From the IMG/VR virus record IMGVR_UViG_3300045988_003672, positions 1 through 5,665 of that record: a DNA stretch of 5,665 bases. One strand, 5' to 3'. The notes below the pieces were generated by a model. The model saw only the letters and a program-made list of their open reading frames with translations, made no database searches and was not told where the DNA came from. The DNA is from a virus. Position 1 is the stretch's first letter, and every line of letters begins with the position of its first letter. The translations under genes and the position numbers were made by a program. Positions 1 through 5,665 of the stretch are shown piece after piece.

Positions 1-55
1 AGCAATCCTCAACAAAGAAATCTATGCACAGGGCAACACGACAGATGAAGAGGCA
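1..55. repeat. Terminal redundancy (copy 1), identical to 5611-5665. This is the overlap left when a circular genome or contig is linearised.
   Basis: Direct reading shows agcaatcctcaacaaagaaatctatgcacagggcaacacgacagatgaagaggca at both ends. The repeat lies inside the capsid reading frame and preserves it. Confidence 0.95.
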
Positions 56-340
56 TTCGGCTATCAGGAAGCATGGGCCGACTACCGGTATAAACCGAGC
101 AAGGTTACCGGACTGTTCCGAAGCAACGCACAACAGAGTCTCGATGCATGGCACTATGCACAGGACTACGACGCACTGCCCACGCTGAGTACGGCATGGA
201 TGGAGCAGAACGATACCGAAATGAAGAGAACACTTGCGGTACAGTCTCAACCAGACTTTATCGCAGACTTCTACTTTATGAACAAAACAACCAGATGTAT
301 GCCGGTGTACAGCATTCCCGGCCTCATCGACCATCACTAA
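1..340 (+). CDS. Major capsid protein VP1 (F-like), C-terminal part. It continues from 5665 across the circular junction. Base 1 is the third base of a codon, the in-frame codons start at 2, and the stop TAA is at 338-340.
   Basis: The frame from base 2 is open to TAA 338-340. It reads [39 protein letters not shown]...[15 protein letters not shown], a typical Microviridae VP1 C-terminus. It is contiguous in frame with 4280..5665 once the 55-nt duplicate is collapsed. Confidence 0.9.
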
Positions 341-351
341 AGAAAGGAGAC

Positions 352-379
352 AGCCGGGGACAAAACCCCGGCTATTTTT
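352..379 (+). terminator. Rho-independent terminator downstream of VP1.
   Basis: An 8-bp GC-rich stem pairs agccgggg (352-359) with ccccggct (366-373). The loop is acaaaa and the stem is followed by aTTTTT (374-379). It starts 12 nt after the VP1 stop. Confidence 0.75.
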
Positions 380-383
380 GAAA

Positions 384-1238
384 ATGGCAATACCAGCCTT
401 TTTAGGAGCCTTATCAACAGGCGCGAAAATACTGGGCGGAGTAAGCGGCCTCATAAACGCCGGAACAGGCATCTTTAACGCACTCAAAGGCACATCAGGC
501 AGTGGCAGCACATCAGCCGACAGTTACAACAGCGCACACGGCGAAGGCGGCTCTAGCATGACCAGCGAAAGCGGAGTAAACATGGACCAGACAAAAGAGC
601 TGGCAAAATACTTTCTGGGGCAGAGCCAACAAGCACAGGGCATGCAGAGCATGCAAAACAACAAAAACTCTCTCCTGGCACTGGGCTTAAACACTCTGGG
701 AGCTATCCAGCAGGGCGTTTACAATCGTATCCAGCAGGACGCGGCAATGTCCTACAACTCCGCAGAGGCAGCAGCTAACAGAGCGTGGCAGGAGCGTATG
801 AGTAACACAAGCTATCAGAGGGCAATGGCCGACATGAAAAAAGCCGGCTTAAATCCAATACTGGCGTATCAGCAGGGCGGAGCAAGCACACCGGGAGGAG
901 CACAAGGCACAATCGGGCAAAGCAGTATGAGCGCGCCGAGTGTCGGAACACAGTCGGCAAGTATGCCGACAATCTCCGGCACAACCGCAAACTACTCGAA
1001 AACCAAAGCGGAAAGTTGGAACTGGACAGACTCAAGCGGAGAAATGCACAGTAGCGGTTACAACAGCTATCAGACGGACTTTCCAGACTTAACCGGATGG
1101 CTCAACCAAAACAACAACAGCGGCAAAAAAGCCGGAAGCAACACGGTGGACGCGCTAAGCGGAGCTGACCACAAAGCAAAAAGCGGCAAAGTGCCAAATC
1201 TTAATCCGATGAACAAATATATTAACGGAGGTAAATAA
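384..1238 (+). CDS. VP2 minor capsid / DNA pilot protein (H-like), 284 aa from ATG 384. The ORF track starts it at TTG 378.
   Basis: The N-terminus is Gly-rich and hydrophobic ([31 protein letters not shown]). The conserved gokushovirus VP2 core [29 protein letters not shown] is present. The rest is Gln/Ser/Asn-rich low complexity. The gene sits directly after VP1, as in Gokushovirinae. Confidence 0.8.
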
Positions 1239-2261
1239 ATGAGCTGCGCAAGACCACTCATCAGAGTATACAATCCAAATGACCACAACATAACAGGGTC
1301 AATCATGACTCTGGAAACGTACCGCGAAAGAACACACAATCCAACAGCAACTTATGAGAGTATCGCATACCGAACAGACGTAATGCTCCTACCATGCGGT
1401 AAATGTCTCGGGTGCAGACTCAGACAACGACAAGACTGGGAAACAAGAATGCTAATGGAGTCAAAAACACTAACGCCAGTGTGGTTTTTGACCCTAACGT
1501 GGAATCAAGAATATGTGCCGGGTATGGTAAGAGCAACAGGCGAAATCATAAGAGGTGCAGTACATCAGTGGACGACCGGAGACGCACCGGAAGTGGTGCA
1601 AATTCTCCTACAAGAGGACATGGTACGCTTTAACAAGAGGCTGAGGAAAAAACAAGAAACGTCCAATAAATGGGGCTTAGACCTGAGATATTTTTACTGT
1701 GGCGAATACGGCGAAAACACGGGAAGACCACATCATCACGGCATTTATTATGGTTTGGAGATACCAGACCTCAAGAAAAAAAGGGGTGATAATCCGTACT
1801 TCGAAAGCGAAGAGATAAACAAAATATGGGGCATGGGTAACGTCATCATCGCAGAGGCATCGCCGGAAACGATGGCTTATGTAGCAGGATATGTAACCAA
1901 AAAGACATACGGCAACGACAACAAAAGGTATAGGGAGTTAGGTTTAACACCGCCGTACTGTTGTATGTCAAGGAATCCGGGTCTGGGCTATGACTACTAC
2001 ACGAGCCATAAAGAGCAGATGTACGCAGATGATGGGCTATACTTTAACGGTAAAAAAAGGCCAATACCGAGGTACTTTGATAAAAAGTATGAGAGTGAGC
2101 GGCCAAAAGAGCTATGGGAGACAAAGCGCAAGAGACAAGAGAGTGCAATCAATGCACTAAAGCTCAAAATGAGCAATACAGGGCTGACCATCGAACAGGA
2201 AGCAAAGGTAGAAGAAGAGACAAAACGACAGAGGTTTAGAAAAGCCAGAGGGCTATTATAG
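1239..2261 (+). CDS. VP4 replication initiation protein (HUH rolling-circle endonuclease), 340 aa.
   Basis: The start abuts the VP2 stop (TAAATG) and GGAGG at 1227-1231 lies 7 nt upstream. Motifs seen: N-terminal MSCARPL, Cys cluster PCGKCLGCR, motif 1 FLTLT (1485-1499), HUH-type PHHHG (1728-1742), and the two-tyrosine motif YVAGYVTKK (1878-1904). Confidence 0.92.
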   Translation: MSCARPLIRVYNPNDHNITGSIMTLETYRERTHNPTATYESIAYRTDVMLLPCGKCLGCRLRQRQDWETRMLMESKTLTPVWFLTLTWNQEYVPGMVRATGEIIRGAVHQWTTGDAPEVVQILLQEDMVRFNKRLRKKQETSNKWGLDLRYFYCGEYGENTGRPHHHGIYYGLEIPDLKKKRGDNPYFESEEINKIWGMGNVIIAEASPETMAYVAGYVTKKTYGNDNKRYRELGLTPPYCCMSRNPGLGYDYYTSHKEQMYADDGLYFNGKKRPIPRYFDKKYESERPKELWETKRKRQESAINALKLKMSNTGLTIEQEAKVEEETKRQRFRKARGLL

Positions 2262-2266
2262 TGTCA

Positions 2267-2303
2267 GTGGGCCTAATCCTATCAAGGAGAGGATTAGGCC
2301 CAC
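2267..2303 (+). other. Perfect 14-bp stem with a 9-nt loop immediately after rep. It is a candidate origin or ssDNA structural element, or a terminator lacking a T-tract.
   Basis: gtgggcctaatcct (2267-2280) pairs perfectly with aggattaggcccac (2290-2303). The loop is atcaaggag. It begins 6 nt after the VP4 stop and no U-tract follows. Confidence 0.7.
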
Positions 2304-2347
2304 ACCCAAGCTTCACAGTTATCCATGGTTAACTTAAATAATCTGAC

Positions 2348-2371
2348 AAGGGGGGACAAAAGTCCCCCCTT
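2348..2371 (+). other. 10-bp G6/C6 hairpin, followed by a second small G/C hairpin at 2380-2393.
   Basis: aaggggggac (2348-2357) pairs with gtcccccctt (2362-2371) around the loop aaaa. The hairpin shares the 10-mer ggggacaaaa with the VP1 terminator hairpin (356-365 and 2352-2361). gcccc/ggggc at 2380-2393 forms a 5-bp stem. Confidence 0.65.
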
Positions 2372-2432
2372 GCGTGTACGCCCCCCAAGGGGCTACCGCA
2401 GAAAAACGGAGTTACGAGCTATAACATACAGG

Positions 2433-2468
2433 CATACGCGCACGCGCGAAACACGCACGCACGCACGC
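2433..2468. repeat. Alternating pyrimidine-purine CG/CA tract including (ACGC)4, bracketed by a 7-bp inverted repeat and followed by a T-run.
   Basis: catacgcgcacgcgcg (2433-2448) and cacgcacgcacgcacgc (2452-2468) both alternate Y-R strictly. tacaggc (2427-2433) pairs with gcctgta (2467-2473), and attttttatttt follows. Confidence 0.7.
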
Positions 2469-2528
2469 CTGTATTTTTTATTTTATAATATAACTTGTTG
2501 TAGCCGTAGTAATAGGGGCTGTGGAAAA

Positions 2529-2712
2529 GTTGAAAACCATAAATTTGAAACGCAACATCATAAAAAAAAAGAATATTTCATTGTTGAAAGATTTGTTAAA
2601 AACTTGTTGAAATGTTGAAACACTTTACCAGGCTAAAATCTATTGCGTATAACGATGTTGAAAAGTATGTTGAAAATGTTGAAAAGCATAAACTTTCCAC
2701 AAAGTGTTGAAA
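2529..2712 (+). repeat. Iteron-like array of 8 same-orientation copies of GTTGAAA, 7 of them as TGTTGAAA(A), in an AT-rich block.
   Basis: The exact copies are at 2529-2536, 2582-2589, 2605-2612, 2613-2620, 2656-2664, 2668-2676, 2677-2685 and 2704-2712. Degenerate copies are TTGTTGtag 2495-2503, TTTGAAA 2544-2550, TGTTaAAAA 2594-2602 and TTTGAAt 2714-2720. An A9 tract lies at 2562-2570. I did not find the exact 7-mer anywhere else in the window. Confidence 0.85.
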
Positions 2713-2723
2713 ATTTGAATTAA

Positions 2724-2813
2724 AGGCAGTCCGACGAGCGAAACCGGAAAGTCACGTCATGCTCTTCGCACGGCGCACCGCGCCTACCGCATGACATTCA
2801 AGGCAAAGTCCGA
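2724..2813 (+). other. GC-rich structured island with nested inverted repeats, flanked by an imperfect direct repeat.
   Basis: gtcatgc (2756-2762) pairs with gcatgac (2789-2795). This encloses ggcgc (2772-2776) paired with gcgcc (2780-2784). The flanks are aggcagtccga (2724-2734) and aggcaaagtccga (2801-2813). A T7 run lies at 2820-2826. Confidence 0.5.
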
Positions 2814-2836
2814 TAAAACTTTTTTTCAAAAACCTC

Positions 2837-2865
2837 TTGACAAAATAGAAAAAGTATGGTATAAT
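2837..2865 (+). promoter_or_regulatory. Consensus sigma70-type promoter with an extended -10 element.
   Basis: TTGACA (2837-2842) is followed by a 17-nt spacer ending in TG (2857-2858), then TATAAT (2860-2865). The upstream flank is A/T-rich (aaaactttttttcaaaaa). The predicted transcription start is near 2872, ahead of the SD agagagg (2876-2882) and ATG 2891. Confidence 0.8.
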
Positions 2866-2890
2866 GCAAACAGAAAGAGAGGTAAGAACC

Positions 2891-3076
2891 ATGAAAGCAA
2901 GATCCTTATGGCACCTCAGTCCTGAGGCCATCAAAGAGCTGTACGAAATCGGAATCTACGATACAAAAAAGTACAGGTACGTACAAGACAAGTGCGACGG
3001 CGAAATATACCGCATCGAAAAAGACCTCTTAGGAACAACAGAAGCACTCGACCCGGAAAACTGGATAAAGCAGTAA
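2891..3076 (+). CDS. Hypothetical small protein (61 aa), first gene after the consensus promoter.
   Basis: MKARSLWHLSPEAIKELYEIGIYDTKKYRYVQDKCDGEIYRIEKDLLGTTEALDPENWIKQ. The SD agagagg lies 8 nt upstream. The ATG at 2864 used by the ORF track sits inside the -10 box, upstream of the predicted transcription start, so it is unlikely to be used. I recognise no family. Confidence 0.55.
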   Translation: MKARSLWHLSPEAIKELYEIGIYDTKKYRYVQDKCDGEIYRIEKDLLGTTEALDPENWIKQ

Positions 3077-3117
3077 AAGAGGGATTGACAAGCCCCTTTT
3101 TCAAATACAACAAAAGC

Positions 3118-3135
3118 AAAAAAAAAGGGGGGGGG
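3118..3135. repeat. A9G9 double homopolymer in the leader of ORF 3141..3347.
   Basis: There are nine A (3118-3126) followed by nine G (3127-3135), then ataaa and ATG 3141. The A/G junction reads as an extended SD-like AAGGGGG. Confidence 0.9.
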
Positions 3136-3140
3136 ATAAA

Positions 3141-3347
3141 ATGTACGATAGAGCATATTATGAGCTGTATAAAGGATACAGAGGGCCAGAAACACCAGAC
3201 GAATGTGAATACTTCATTCGAAAGCTTTACAGGCAGCTCAAAAGAGCGTATACTGTAGAGGAGGCGAAAGCCATCATAGAAGAAATTTACAAATACAAAG
3301 GCCAAAAGGCAGAAATGGAGTTGAAGCAATGGCAATCATCAGTGTGA
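3141..3347 (+). CDS. Hypothetical small protein (68 aa), predicted helical and rich in Tyr, Lys and Glu.
   Basis: MYDRAYYELYKGYRGPETPDECEYFIRKLYRQLKRAYTVEEAKAIIEEIYKYKGQKAEMELKQWQSSV. The purine-rich SD ends 5 nt before the ATG. I recognise no family. Confidence 0.55.
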   Translation: MYDRAYYELYKGYRGPETPDECEYFIRKLYRQLKRAYTVEEAKAIIEEIYKYKGQKAEMELKQWQSSV

Positions 3348-3472
3348 AGGAAATCAAGAACGCCATCAAAATCATGATGGACATTCTCGAGAAGCTGGAC
3401 GAAATTTATCACGCGCTGCACGACAAGGAGGATGACAGCAATGGCAAAACGCACGAAGATGACCAGCAGTAA
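3329..3472 (+). CDS. Possible small acidic protein (47 aa). It falls below the ORF-track size cutoff.
   Basis: MAIISVKEIKNAIKIMMDILEKLDEIYHALHDKEDDSNGKTHEDDQQ*. GGAG (3317-3320) lies 8 nt upstream. The ORF overlaps the end of the previous ORF by 19 nt and the start of the next by 32 nt, which fits microvirus-style packing. Confidence 0.35.
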   Translation: MAIISVKEIKNAIKIMMDILEKLDEIYHALHDKEDDSNGKTHEDDQQ

Positions 3473-3560
3473 AGACAAAAAGGTCTTTACCCAGACGGCA
3501 AAAAAGACAAAAGCCGTCAACGTCAGCCCGAAGAACATGAGAGGAGGCACCAGACTGTAA
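3441..3560 (+). CDS. Small basic DNA-binding/packaging protein (J / VP8-like), 39 aa. Not in the ORF track.
   Basis: MAKRTKMTSSKDKKVFTQTAKKTKAVNVSPKNMRGGTRL*. It is Lys/Arg-rich and ends in the ...MRGGxRL pattern typical of gokushovirus ORF8-type proteins. AAGGAGG (3425-3431) lies 9 nt upstream. Confidence 0.7.
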   Translation: MAKRTKMTSSKDKKVFTQTAKKTKAVNVSPKNMRGGTRL

Positions 3561-3802
3561 TGCTGAGACATTATTATGCAATCTATGACAAGGTGGCCAA
3601 GACCTTCAGCGGCCTTTTCGAGCAGCAGAACGATGCAGTTGCAAGCAGGCTCTTCGAAAGCCAGCAGAAGAACAAGGACAGCTTTATCAGCGTCAAGCCG
3701 GAAGACTTCCAGCTGCACTACATCTGCACCATGGAGGACGAGACCGGCGAAATCGTCGATAACGTCAACACGTGCGTATGTGAGGGCAAACCCAATGAGT
3801 GA
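3560..3802 (+). CDS. Conserved gokushovirus non-structural protein (VP5-like), 80 aa.
   Basis: The start overlaps the previous stop (TAATG). The pattern YAIYDKVAKTFSGLF..ND.VA.R.F....K.S....PEDFQL..I....DETGEI matches the small protein found between VP4 and VP3 in many gokushoviruses, as I recall it. Confidence 0.6.
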   Translation: MLRHYYAIYDKVAKTFSGLFEQQNDAVASRLFESQQKNKDSFISVKPEDFQLHYICTMEDETGEIVDNVNTCVCEGKPNE

Positions 3803-4283
3803 GTTTCGGAGCGCGTACAGCGGACAGGTAAGACATACGAGCCTGACCGGCAACGGCCGTGAACCTGAGTATGAGTACAAGGTAACGGAAGAAGGCCGGG
3901 AGCTGGTAAAAACCGGCGAAACAGACGTCTATGCACTCATCCAGAGCCGTCTGGATGAAACCAAAATCGAAAACATCATCAAGCGGGCAACATACGACCC
4001 GACTGCACTGGGCAGTCAGGACTGGCAGACCAGCGAGACGATAACCGATATTTCGGACGCGCCGACAAACTATCACGAGTGGTATGGGCGTATCAAAGAC
4101 GCGGAAGCGGAGTTTGACAAGCTGCCCATCGAAATCAAAAACAAGTGGGACAACGATGTGGAAAAATACATCATGGCCTACGGAACCCAAGAGTGGGCAG
4201 ACAAAATGGGCATAGCAAAGCAGAAAGCCGAGGCAGAAAAACCGGCTGAAAAACCGGCTGAAAAAAGTGAGGTGAAAGAATGA
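3795..4283 (+). CDS. VP3 internal scaffolding protein, 162 aa from ATG 3795. The ORF track extends this frame upstream to 3576.
   Basis: MSEFRSAYSG...DISDAPTNYHEWYGRIKDAEAEFDKLPIEIKNKWDNDVEKYI... matches the conserved VP3 core (AE.EFDKLP.EIR.KFDND.EKF). GAGGG lies 8 nt upstream. The stop overlaps the VP1 start (ATGA, 4280-4283). Confidence 0.8.
   Translation: MSEFRSAYSGQVRHTSLTGNGREPEYEYKVTEEGRELVKTGETDVYALIQSRLDETKIENIIKRATYDPTALGSQDWQTSETITDISDAPTNYHEWYGRIKDAEAEFDKLPIEIKNKWDNDVEKYIMAYGTQEWADKMGIAKQKAEAEKPAEKPAEKSEVKE
4236..4266 (+). repeat. 12-nt tandem repeat (2.6 copies) encoding (EKPA)n at the VP3 C-terminus.
   Basis: gaaaaaccggct occurs at 4236-4247 and 4248-4259, followed by gaaaaaa at 4260-4266. 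The protein reads AEKPAEKPAEKSE. Confidence 0.85.
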
Positions 4284-5665
4284 ACCGCAACAGTGAATAC
4301 AGCTTTGCACAAAATCCGCAGGTCGGAGTAAGCCGCAGCCGATTCCAGCGCAACAGCGACAACAAAACGACCTTCAACACGGGCGACCTCATCCCGGTCT
4401 ATCTAGACGAGGTGCTTCCGGGTGATACGCACCAAGTAGACGTTGCCTGTGTGATGCGAATGGCAACACCCATCTTCCCGGTGATGGACAACGCCTTTTG
4501 CGACTTTTACTTCTTCTTCGTACCTAACCGCTTGCTCTGGGAGCACTGGAAGGAGTTTATGGGCGAGAACAAGGAAACAGCATGGACGCCTAAGACAGAG
4601 TACAGTGTGCCACAGGTGACGGCACCAACAGGCGGATGGGCAGAAGGTACGCTGGCAGACTATCTGGGACTGCCCACCAAGGTCGAAGGCATCAGCGTAA
4701 GCGCTCTGCCCGGTCGAGCATACGGCCTAATCTACAACGAGTGGTTTCGAAACCAAAACGTCACGCAGCCGACGCTCGTAGAGGTGACGGACGCAACGAC
4801 GACCGGCAAAAACGACGGCAGCGCTACCAACGACAGCGCTATCACGCTGGCAAAACCTCTTAAAGCAGCGAAGGTGTTTGACTACTACACCGGAGCTTTG
4901 CCGGAGCCGCAGAAAGGCGAGCCGATTACCATTCCGCTGAGCGGTAACGCGCCCATTAAAAGCTACCTAAACCAAGAAATGACAATACCAGCCGCCGTAA
5001 TTAAAACCGGCAGCTCATACACTACGACCGGCTGGCCATGGGATATCAACGGCAAAGCATACCTGTTCCAAAACAACATAGACGGAACGGCAACGATGAC
5101 AGGCCAAACTAAAAGCGGAACCTCTTTTGGCGATAAAGTCGACGGGCAAACAAGCGACATAGCCTTCTTGGGAGCCGACCTTGGAGCAGTAACAGCGGCG
5201 ACCATCAACCAACTCCGACAGGCATTCCAGATCCAGAAACTGCTCGAAAAAGATGCACGAGGCGGCACGAGATACCGCGAGGTACTGCGCGAGCACTTCG
5301 GAGTTATCTCTCCTGACTCTCGTATGCAGATTCCGGAGTATCTGGGCGGCTACAGACTACCTATCAACGTGTCTCAGGTTATCCAGACCTCTTCGACCGA
5401 CGGCACGAGTCCGCTGGGCAACACAGCGGCGCTAAGTGTGACCACAATGAACAAACCCATGTTTACCAAGTCCTTTACCGAGCATGGCTTCATCATGGGT
5501 CTGGCAGTCGTCCGTACCGACCAGACCTATCAGCAGGGTATCGAGCGCATGTGGAGCCGCAAAGGCCGGTATGATTACTACTGGCCTGTACTGGCAAACA
5601 TCGGCGAGCAAGCAATCCTCAACAAAGAAATCTATGCACAGGGCAACACGACAGATGAAGAGGCA
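4280..5665 (+). CDS. Major capsid protein VP1 (F-like), N-terminal 462 codons. It runs off the window end and continues at base 2. The full protein is 556 aa.
   Basis: I translated this frame by hand from ATG 4280 and found no stop through 5665. Motifs: MNRNSEYSFAQNPQVGVSRSRF...TFNTGDLIPVYLDEVLPGDT, GRAYGLIYNEWFRNQN, DYYTGALPEPQKG, and INQLRQAFQIQKLLEKDARGGTRYREVLREHFGV. A variable insertion of about 85 aa (residues ~221-305) sits between conserved blocks, as in the gokushovirus surface loop. Confidence 0.93.
   Translation, partial: MNRNSEYSFAQNPQVGVSRSRFQRNSDNKTTFNTGDLIPVYLDEVLPGDTHQVDVACVMRMATPIFPVMDNAFCDFYFFFVPNRLLWEHWKEFMGENKETAWTPKTEYSVPQVTAPTGGWAEGTLADYLGLPTKVEGISVSALPGRAYGLIYNEWFRNQNVTQPTLVEVTDATTTGKNDGSATNDSAITLAKPLKAAKVFDYYTGALPEPQKGEPITIPLSGNAPIKSYLNQEMTIPAAVIKTGSSYTTTGWPWDINGKAYLFQNNIDGTATMTGQTKSGTSFGDKVDGQTSDIAFLGADLGAVTAATINQLRQAFQIQKLLEKDARGGTRYREVLREHFGVISPDSRMQIPEYLGGYRLPINVSQVIQTSSTDGTSPLGNTAALSVTTMNKPMFTKSFTEHGFIMGLAVVRTDQTYQQGIERMWSRKGRYDYYWPVLANIGEQAILNKEIYAQGNTTDEEA
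5611..5665. repeat. Terminal redundancy (copy 2), identical to 1-55.
   Basis: The 55-nt identity to the window start was read directly from the sequence. Confidence 0.95.

Follow-up and report, generated by a model that had tools for sequence, protein, structure and literature searches.

Organization of the promoter-proximal region

The DNA analyzed in this study is the IMG/VR virus record IMGVR_UViG_3300045988_003672 (positions 1 to 5,665; this whole stretch of 5,665 nucleotides [nt] is hereafter referred to as the window). It is a gokushovirus with a circular genome of 5,610 nt, taken as circular and complete because positions 1-55 are identical to positions 5611-5665 (a 55-nt assembly overlap). 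We focused on three small open reading frames (ORFs), designated A, B and C, which are located between rep (VP4) and the J, VP5 and VP3 genes on the + strand, as is every gene of this genome, and on the consensus-type promoter P1 that precedes them. Comparison with relatives indicates, at the level of sequence, that the three ORFs are not one cassette: of the three, A alone occupies a variable slot beside the promoter, while B and C form a constant pair contiguous with J and VP5. In the following, A, B, C, S, X, Y, Z, N65, R and Q are names of small ORF families, and L-numbers are loci or contigs of relatives. The features of the region are:

2756-2795, + strand: conserved hairpin GTCATGC...GCATGAC, an inverted repeat about 40 nt upstream of the -35 box
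2815-2836, + strand: A/T-rich flank resembling an UP element, read from the sequence and aligned with relatives
2837-2865, + strand: promoter P1, TTGACA-17-TGgTATAAT, with an extended -10 (12/12 with TG)
2866-2890, + strand: leader with the Shine-Dalgarno (SD) sequence GAGAGG (2877-2882), 8 nt ahead of the ATG of A; kept in all A carriers including L011
2891-3076, + strand: ORF A, 61 amino acids (aa), SD GAGAGG, in the promoter-proximal variable slot
3078-3111, + strand: decayed terminator and promoter element, with a hairpin remnant at 3078-3098 and a T-run at 3097-3101
3118-3135, + strand: A9 G9 homopolymer run, of which the G-run is the ribosome-binding site of B; relatives read GCAGAAGGGGGAT
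3141-3347, + strand: ORF B, 68 aa, G-run SD; a three-helix protein, directly upstream of C in this clade
3329-3472, + strand: ORF C, 47 aa, SD GGAG at 3317-3320; overlaps the end of B and the start of J

P1 as a conserved element of the backbone

An earlier note, made from the letters of this DNA alone, had described a perfect TTGACA-17-TGnTATAAT promoter with an A/T-rich flank, and this promoter is indeed present at 2837-2865. P1 consists of the -35 box TTGACA (2837-2842), a 17-nt spacer, TG at 2857-2858 and the -10 box TATAAT (2860-2865), and is the sole 12/12 match in the window, for which about 1.3e-4 would be expected (both strands, 5.6 kb, uniform base composition). Transcription is predicted to start near 2872. 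The hairpin at 2756-2795, which forms the right end of the conserved non-coding region, was used as an anchor to align promoters across the relatives. Near-consensus sequences of the type TTGACx-16/17-(TGn)TAnAAT were then found about 40 nt past the hairpin in nearly all anchorable relatives, regardless of whether the first gene is A, X, Y, Z or N65, and in L039 and L044 the promoter stands immediately ahead of B, the slot being empty. Since a near-consensus promoter is located there whatever gene comes next, P1 is regarded as a backbone element, and would represent the conserved strong promoter of the backbone at the right end of the long non-coding region.

Conservation of the three ORFs

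The presence of three small ORFs with SD sequences downstream of P1 was confirmed, and all three are conserved under purifying selection. Homologues of A, B and C form 125, 126 and 251 clusters, respectively, in a large protein collection, nearly all on contigs of about 5-6 kb (no more than 6 kb for B and C). For C, 233 loci were found in IMG/VR and 92 unique sequences in the loci fetched; the 47-aa frame, which had been listed only as a possible ORF, is present and the doubt about it is removed. The ratio of nonsynonymous to synonymous substitution rates (dN/dS) against GenBank relatives is 0.22-0.24 for A, 0.07-0.44 for B and 0.07-0.23 for C (3-8 relatives for each ORF, one outlier being based on two synonymous changes), and the median pairwise values are 0.32 for A (15 unique sequences), 0.24 for B (37) and 0.25 for C (39). 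Substitutions are concentrated at third codon positions in all three ORFs, the third position of ORF C being variable in 41 of the 47 codons, and the cores carry neither internal stops nor frameshifts; length differences are confined to the final few codons of B and to the acidic tail of C. A dN/dS near 1 or frameshifts in relatives had been proposed as signs that purifying selection is lacking; the medians lie at 0.24-0.32 and the frames of the cores are intact. Judged from this pattern, A, B and C are real genes.

A longer form of ORF A, 70 aa from an ATG at 2864, was rejected. Its start lies within the -10 box, and the ATG is missing in L018 and L011 (TATAATA). The 61-aa form was therefore taken as the gene.

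None of the three proteins carries a motif of a known Microviridae protein, as had been noted from the sequence: A, B and C gave no match to VP1-VP5, VP8/J or the phiX A-K families, and no homology to a structural microvirus protein was found in the profile searches. Neither did A, B or C match any family in Pfam, PHROGs or NCBIfam, and PDB profile searches with A and B gave noise only.

A variable slot between promoter and ORF B

The block B-C-J-VP5 is complete, uninterrupted and unchanged in gene order in every one of about 45 relatives. What lies between promoter and B differs: no gene at all, A, A plus X, X, Y, Z, N65, R or Q (X, 65 aa; Y, 58 aa and Cys-rich; Z, 61 aa; N65, 65 aa; R, 56 aa; Q, 66 aa), with the co-occurrences A-R, N65-R, Z-N65 and Z-Q, and most of these slot-mates gave no match in Pfam, PHROGs or NCBIfam. 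Of the relatives that have B, about a third carry ORF A. The gene order of a second clade, more distantly related, is promoter, variable ORFs, peptidase M15 endolysin, C, S and J. ORF A would be the present occupant of a hypervariable promoter-proximal slot, and this slot appears to exchange small genes between microvirus lineages and with double-stranded DNA (dsDNA) phages that share their habitat.

Slot ORF Y (55-58 aa; L004 1621-1797, L005 1330-1497, L006 1469-1645) carries a CX3CX2C motif and further cysteines, belongs to no family and is probably a small metal-binding protein. Another relative, L007 (MG945423), is a recombinant in which VP4 is 95% identical to that of the window, J 62%, VP5 27% and VP3 38%; its breakpoint lies at the end of C, which is cut to about 30 aa, and it holds a degraded AcrIC5-like remnant.

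The spacer between slot and B carries an element, GGG(C/A)TTGACAAGCCC, that was found ahead of B in the window and in L008, L015, L016, L021-23 and L026. In these relatives, which form the closest sub-lineage, a GC-rich hairpin with a T-run follows the slot genes, with TTGACA in its loop and TACAAT or TAAAAT after the T-run, so that one element is both a + strand terminator and an 11/12 promoter (L008, L016). The slot of this sub-lineage is thus predicted to be an insulated transcription unit, with B-C-J onward under a promoter of their own. The copy in the window (TTGACA at 3085-3090 in the loop, a 15-nt spacer, TACAAC at 3106-3111) retains three G-C pairs, a five-base T-run and only a weak 5-pair stem, and the RNA fold of the A-B spacer is no better than that of shuffles (z = -0.5). 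Because this terminator and second promoter have decayed, P1 transcripts of the window are expected to read through A into B, C and the structural genes, and the product of P1 is most likely a single long transcript that spans A, B, C, J, VP5, VP3 and VP1. The A9 G9 run next to this element could be a slippage-prone tract or an artefact of sequencing or assembly.

The family of ORF A

ORF A encodes a mildly acidic protein (isoelectric point 5.3) with no membrane segment, and its GC content of 0.45 does not set it apart from its neighbours. The AlphaFold model, with a predicted local distance difference test (pLDDT) score of 88, shows a small alpha/beta fold of a helix, three strands and short helices. 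The Foldseek search of this model against PDB gave no match below E = 1 (best E 1.7). The sole BFVD match was the orthologue of A in another uncultured microvirus.

Searching 1.84 billion representative proteins with a profile yielded 69 remote representatives of the family, mostly of 55-70 aa, which share the motif YDT[KR]KYRY...RI...LGTT.ALD..NW. Three of these relatives were looked up, and all were located in contigs of phi29-like podoviruses together with Phi29_MCP, connector, gp16 and protein-primed polymerase. The A-family gene of L141, the first at the end of its contig, is preceded by a TTGACT-N17-TGgTACAAT promoter of its own and followed by a strong terminator; in L139 it is also terminal and has an extended -10 promoter. 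One relative is fused to a ribbon-helix-helix (RHH) domain. Among the microviruses, L009 (KT264790) carries an A that is 59% identical to that of the window, its VP4 and VP5 being 44% and 24% identical. On these sequence relationships, we conclude that ORF A is a mobile early-position phage gene common to unrelated gut phages.

No bacterial homologue of ORF A was found in the GTDB species representatives; the matches to the A profile in this set, motifs of 13-15 residues in Advenella and Colwellia only, were rejected as chance. The extended -10 promoters, the strong SD sites and the gene sharing with phi29-like phages would point to Firmicutes as the host.

Several records show members of the A family in unusual surroundings. 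P0001, 98% identical to ORF A, is named 'hypothetical protein [Pseudomonas putida]' at NCBI and comes from a 5.6-kb contig, which is most likely a microvirus contig within a bacterial assembly and not evidence of a host. The 58-aa predicted protein P0386 consists of the first 24 residues of C joined to the middle of A, either by recombination or as an assembly chimera. In L011, a bacterial contig of 13 kb with a gene for a ClpB-like ATPase, the A-module lies at the contig end, where a P1-like promoter, an A homologue (64%) and the start of a slot-type ORF (7860-8249) adjoin a bacterial glyA terminator; the junction could be that of a prophage, a captured module or an assembly chimera. L012 (16 kb) holds, within 1-10418, genes of the Firmicutes conjugative-element type (NlpC/P60, DUF4315, CD1107-like, topoisomerase) and more than one unit length of a microvirus, with two unlike slot copies, A-X and X alone; this contig represents either an integration or a chimera.

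An anti-CRISPR family member in the slot of a sister genome

The slot of the sister genome KT264799 (L008), which shows 92.5% nt identity to the window, is occupied by ORF Q. This ORF matched the full Pfam profile of AcrIC5 (PF22147) with E 5.7e-21 (74.8 bits, cutoff 27), and by sequence matched PDB 7yhr_A, 'Anti-CRISPR protein Type I-C5', with E 6.7e-9. The hairpin element downstream of A in the window is also present here, with Q directly upstream of it and ending 10 nt ahead of it, so that Q and A are in equivalent positions. A second case was found in MG945373 (L265), a microvirus of different organization, in which an AcrIC5 homologue (Pfam E 2e-25) follows an 11/12 promoter.

As to the surroundings, the AcrIC5-family gene of KT264799 (1430-1630) is followed by a perfect terminator (1639-1663), of which the loop and T-run form the 11/12 promoter, by a 24-aa hydrophobic ORF at 1700-1774 (MVDVIQSIAIMLLSIAVIINAKRR) and by the B homologue (1777-1983), which is labelled 'VP5' in GenBank. 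The segment of MG945373 lies between VP2 and VP4, and includes the promoter (1511-1539), the AcrIC5 homologue (1586-1771) and an overlapping 60-aa ORF (1768-1950) of no known family.

With the AcrIC5 profile, only Q and the ORF of MG945373 gave matches, and none was obtained at E <= 1 for A, B or C; no close relatives of Q were found in IMG/VR. A and the anti-CRISPR (Acr) gene never occur in the same genome; they are linked by the co-occurrence chain A-R, R-N65, N65-Z and Z-Q. AcrIC5 is known to block DNA binding by the type I-C Cascade (PMC7913775), and its homologues have been found in Firmicutes, Actinobacteria and Proteobacteria (PMC7913775; preprint 10.1101/2025.06.06.658234). Gut Microviridae are targeted by CRISPR, with Firmicutes among the targeting hosts (PMC8530359).

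ORF A has traits expected of an anti-defence gene: it is 61 aa long, is the first gene after P1, has a patchy distribution and occurs also in unrelated podoviruses, its expression being predicted from position. As the slot of the sister genome holds a member of an anti-CRISPR family, anti-defence is a reasonable lead for ORF A; we consider A a candidate anti-defence gene, an assignment that is reasonable but unproven and is the best supported of its possible functions, by position and by this one anchor. The earlier note had proposed that all three ORFs lie in a position variable between phages, where host-takeover, anti-defence, superinfection-exclusion or lysis or lysogeny-control functions are hidden. 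The variability holds for the slot of A, including the anti-CRISPR family member of the sister genome, and not for B or C; of the functions proposed, anti-defence stands as the lead for A, and nothing ties any of the ORFs to lysis or to lysogeny control.

B and C as a conserved pair

The AlphaFold model of ORF B (pLDDT 90) consists of three helices of 9, 17 and 29 residues (3-11, 19-35 and 39-67), for which Foldseek gave no match in PDB below E = 1, the best being generic helical hairpins. The core of ORF C, 32 residues encoded by 3329-3424, is an amphipathic heptad-repeat helix (V6, I9, I13, M16, L20, L23, Y27, L30) with the invariant sequence ILEKLDxIYHA, and is followed by an acidic tail of variable length. 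This core is the most conserved of the proteins compared, being 78-84% identical across backbones in which VP4, VP5, VP3 and the VP1 N-terminus are 27-45% identical. Because synonymous sites vary freely, what is constrained is considered to be the C peptide rather than an element of the DNA. Stop and start codons overlap at both B/C and C/J, and B-C is predicted to be a translationally coupled pair. A 10/12 promoter-like sequence, TTTACA-17-TATACT at 3226-3254 inside ORF B, recurs in relatives; it may merely mirror the conservation of the protein sequence.

In the second clade, the 73-75-aa ORF S is located downstream of C. B and S never co-occur (67 versus about 46 loci). After the two sets were cleaned of cross-contaminating read-through ORFs, the comparison of B with S by hhalign gave a probability of 85% and E 6e-6 (reversed decoy, E 0.04), and BLASTP showed 42-45% identity across 36-38 residues. 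B is probably homologous to S, so that B/S and C would make up a conserved pair with flipped order, B-C in one clade and C-S in the other. The pair B-C or C-S is located next to J-VP5 in more than 100 genomes. Since the pair is constant and contiguous with J-VP5, and since a homologous C-S pair is present in the second clade, B and C are regarded as core genes of the lineage and not as an insert. They would be small helical proteins specific to a large group of gut gokushoviruses and expressed together with J, VP5 and VP3, and most likely act jointly, as a small helical complex, in the phage's own cycle.

Other features of the genome

The neighbouring genes were identified by profile searches as J-like (phrog_10695), Phage_ORF5, Chlamy_scaf, pilot protein and Rep, and the nearest GenBank records, with 85-92% nucleotide identity, are uncultured gokushoviruses from dog, pig and human faeces. 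The remaining features of the window are:

4281 across the junction to 340, + strand: VP1 (Pfam/PHROGs)
378-1238, + strand: VP2, pilot protein (Pfam/PHROGs)
1239-2261, + strand: VP4, Rep (Pfam/PHROGs)
2262-2890: non-coding region, 629 nt
2582-2712, + strand: seven exact TGTTGAAA repeats, 125-255 nt upstream of the -35 box
3441-3560, + strand: J/VP8-like basic DNA-binding protein, 39 aa (phrog_10695, E 8e-9), the first canonical gene after B-C
3560-3802, + strand: VP5 (Pfam/PHROGs)
3795-4283, + strand: VP3 (Pfam/PHROGs)

From the relatives and the SD spacing, the start of the J/VP8-like gene was set at 3441 and not at 3432, which gives an overlap of 32 nt with C; the protein is identical or almost so among the relatives (dN/dS about 0). 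The non-coding region of 629 nt and the 550 nt of 2891-3440 add up to 1,179 nt, leaving a remainder of 4,431 nt. The size of this genome, 5.6 kb against the 4.4-4.9 kb given for typical gokushoviruses, had been attributed to the small ORFs and the long non-coding region, and is accounted for by these 1,179 nt on a core of 4,431 nt.

The seven TGTTGAAA repeats of the non-coding region all lie on the + strand, against 0.25 expected, and this number was reached in none of 200 shuffles. Degenerate copies start at about 2520, and similar repeats were found in both clades, including distant relatives; the array may be an iteron-like binding site of a regulator or replication factor. The segment 2701-2795 is still 88% identical in the distant KT264788 and KT264789. 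Past the stop codon of rep lie three strong hairpins (2267-2303, 2347-2372 and 2420-2480). The last of them is a palindrome rich in (CGCA)n with a T-run behind it; the three may function as terminators or as the origin for the complementary strand of the single-stranded DNA (ssDNA) genome. One sub-threshold match to a microRNA in Rfam, on the CGCA palindrome, was judged spurious, and no transfer RNA was found in the window. A 97-aa ORF at 2325-2618 in the non-coding region was not accepted as a gene: it belongs to no family, its conservation tracks the DNA and its frames are broken in relatives. A terminator-like hairpin with a T-run lies at 352-373, 12 nt past the VP1 stop codon, and could attenuate transcription ahead of VP2 and VP4.

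Interpretation of the locus

The explanation that we favour for the whole region, and hold with moderate confidence, combines a backbone promoter, a swappable mobile early gene A, for which an anti-defence role is likely, and the core pair B-C. By its position, A would be the first and most strongly expressed protein once the single strand is converted to double-stranded DNA, and it is most likely a small soluble inhibitor of host defence, or of another early host function, that acts by binding a host protein.

Several points weigh against this explanation. ORF A shows no similarity in sequence or fold to known anti-defence proteins. The AcrIC5 homologue is absent from the window genome, the link being positional and across genomes, and the genome that provides it, KT264799, is without P1 and without the 5' half of the neighbouring ORF Z, for which reason it may be defective or misassembled. 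Of about 20 slot families, a single one could be matched to a known family, so that the functional theme of the slot rests on a single anchor. No regulator of the anti-CRISPR-associated (Aca) type, with a helix-turn-helix (HTH) or RHH domain, is present beside the slot; the slot of the second clade is adjoined by an endolysin (peptidase M15); and no defence system that A would counter can be named. No line of evidence singles out a function for B and C.

A wider proposal would be that the promoter-side slot trades small anti-defence genes with dsDNA phages, with A, X, Y, Z, N65 and R as new inhibitor families, and that the C core and B/S form an essential module, maybe with the missing lysis or host-shutoff function; this proposal we put forward only tentatively.

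ORF A could instead be an early factor of host takeover or superinfection exclusion, and not an inhibitor of a dedicated defence system. Inhibitors of host enzymes, among them the uracil-DNA glycosylase inhibitor p56, are encoded by early genes at the termini of phi29-like genomes, and A is small, soluble, mobile and first expressed, with family members at the early ends of phi29-like genomes. Microviruses do employ a hypervariable region for superinfection exclusion (Kirchberger et al. 2021, as described in PMC9239249), but this region is located within the pilot protein VP2, and a block of entry by A is difficult to reconcile with its lack of a suitable membrane segment. Moreover, the sole slot occupant of a recognizable family is an anti-CRISPR, and the fast turnover of the slot in close relatives is more typical of arms-race genes; a takeover or exclusion factor is rather unlikely.

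Coming to the core pair, a role of B, C or both in lysis and egress, with C as a membrane-active amphipathic helix that is maybe assisted by B/S, was considered. As had been remarked from the sequence, no lysis gene is otherwise recognizable in the window: profile searches gave no match to a peptidase or endolysin, and a membrane-span-like segment (a 15-18-residue hydrophobic window) was detected in none of the + strand ORFs of at least 15 aa, the best value for C being 0.85. The genomes with an empty slot carry only B and C beyond the six canonical genes, and the start of C in the second clade coincides with the stop codon of the peptidase M15 endolysin gene (phrog_894, E 3e-43), S being next. 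The helix of C is indeed amphipathic, but B and C lack a hydrophobic membrane span, 8 charged residues are present in the first 25 of C, and the pair is kept unchanged in the clade without an endolysin. Since six-gene gokushoviruses without B and C still give confluent lysis of the host (PMC7062461), lysis by gokushoviruses does not need these genes, and a lytic role of the pair appears improbable. A 38-aa ORF with a membrane-span-like segment (VNIIIWIGCIASLIAICSASFALIAMGIDIIKNWKEKE), located between J and VP5 of L009 (KT264790; 2780-2896) in the second clade and absent from the window, is a candidate small lysis or holin-like peptide.

It is also quite improbable that B, C or both regulate their own non-coding region, by Aca-like feedback or in control of replication or packaging, through the TGTTGAAA array or P1. 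A series of variable genes followed by a conserved small helical gene does resemble the acr-aca operons outlined in the AcaFinder preprint, and the highly significant repeat array lies just upstream of P1 and occurs in both of the clades that have C and B/S. The model of B, however, is made of long helices without an HTH or RHH fold (all fold matches at E > 1), C is acidic with a charge of -6, S is not beside the slot in the second clade, and P1 would also drive essential structural genes. Co-occurrence of the repeats with B-C was not established, as the scan for paired TGTTGAAA was unspecific, with mostly single chance matches in large contigs among the matches listed.

The proposal of the earlier note, that A, B and C were inserted as a unit with their own promoter between rep and the J/VP5/VP3 genes, must be regarded as very improbable. 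It was suggested by the arrangement of three adjacent small ORFs without known homologues behind a single strong promoter, and canonical enterobacterial gokushoviruses of 4.3-4.7 kb lack these ORFs (PMC7062461). Only A is variable, however, being replaced elsewhere by other genes or by nothing, whereas B-C is invariant and contiguous with J-VP5. The promoter, which had been assigned to the cassette, keeps its place in nearly all anchorable relatives and directly precedes B in two of them; in close relatives a terminator and a second promoter separate the slot from B; and B and C are better conserved across backbones than VP1, VP3, VP4 and VP5. That some or all of the ORFs are chance reading frames of a non-coding spacer, as their shortness and the lack of a database family might suggest, has hardly any probability in view of the more than 100 homologue clusters for each ORF, dN/dS values well below 1 with variation at third positions, intact frames in relatives, confident structure predictions and well-placed ribosome-binding sites.

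Comparison with known systems

The locus favoured here, a backbone promoter followed by the exchangeable gene A and the constant pair B-C, resembles the acr and anti-defence loci of dsDNA phages and prophages in several respects, including small ORFs of fast turnover behind a strong early promoter, unrelated small genes at one position in close relatives, AcrIC5 as the sister occupant, and sharing across unrelated mobile elements. It differs from them in that the carrier is a 5.6-kb ssDNA microvirus without an Aca-type HTH or RHH regulator beside the slot, that the promoter apparently serves the structural genes as well, the slot heading the probable main operon, and that A matches no known Acr. 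With AcrIC5 itself (PF22147; 7YHR; Leon et al. 2021, PMC7913775), the likeness lies in the equivalent slot of KT264799, the promoter-led slot of MG945373, and the small size and acidic nature that it shares with several slot proteins; A, B and C have no detectable similarity to AcrIC5, and A is only mildly acidic and is predicted to take a different alpha/beta fold. Our literature search found no description of Acr genes in gokushoviruses; a 2026 preprint mentions six anti-CRISPR genes in ssDNA phages as a passing count.

The morons of tailed phages were reportedly described by Juhala, Hendrix and others in 2000 as single genes, inserted between those of the backbone, that each bring a promoter and a terminator. 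Similarly to morons, the presence of slot genes varies between the same flanking genes, and in close relatives the slot lies between P1 and a terminator that is still intact; the A-family gene of podovirus L141 is a textbook unit of promoter, gene and terminator. In the window, unlike in morons, the terminator is decayed, P1 belongs to the backbone and is not borne by the gene, and the GC content of A is not distinct.

The phiX174-type phages carry the small non-structural proteins K, C and E, among which E has a membrane segment, and VP5 plays a phiX C-like role in gokushoviruses. B and C resemble K, C and E in size, in overlapping coupled frames and in the vicinity to J and the morphogenesis genes, but show no similarity to them in Pfam or PHROGs and have no E-type membrane segment.

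Like the accessory genes of microviruses known so far (peptidase M15/amidase and methyltransferases), the slot genes are non-core and intergenic, and a peptidase M15 is located between slot and C in the second clade. The survey of these phages described gene uptake as essentially limited to peptidases and methyltransferases, and microviruses as isolated from the wider gene pool (Kirchberger et al. 2022, PMC9239249), with small shared peptides that could not be interpreted (PMC9239249); here, unlike in that survey, small genes of two families, A and AcrIC5, are shared with dsDNA phages. The defensive hypervariable region of temperate microviruses (Kirchberger et al. 2021, as cited in PMC9239249) is likewise a hypervariable segment tied to conflict with competitors, but it is part of the pilot protein VP2 and prevents other microviruses from injecting their DNA, whereas the slot described here holds separate small genes behind a promoter.

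Biological implications

A microvirus lineage with a defined promoter-side slot contrasts with the view of an almost closed gene pool in these phages (PMC9239249). B and C are very small and highly conserved proteins that occur in hundreds of genomes of gut microviruses and for which GenBank has either no annotation or a wrong one, and they bear on the open questions of lysis and assembly of gokushoviruses. If the slot genes are anti-defence genes, ssDNA phages would take part in the same arms race as the tailed phages, and their tiny genomes would be a compact and easily synthesized source of new inhibitors.

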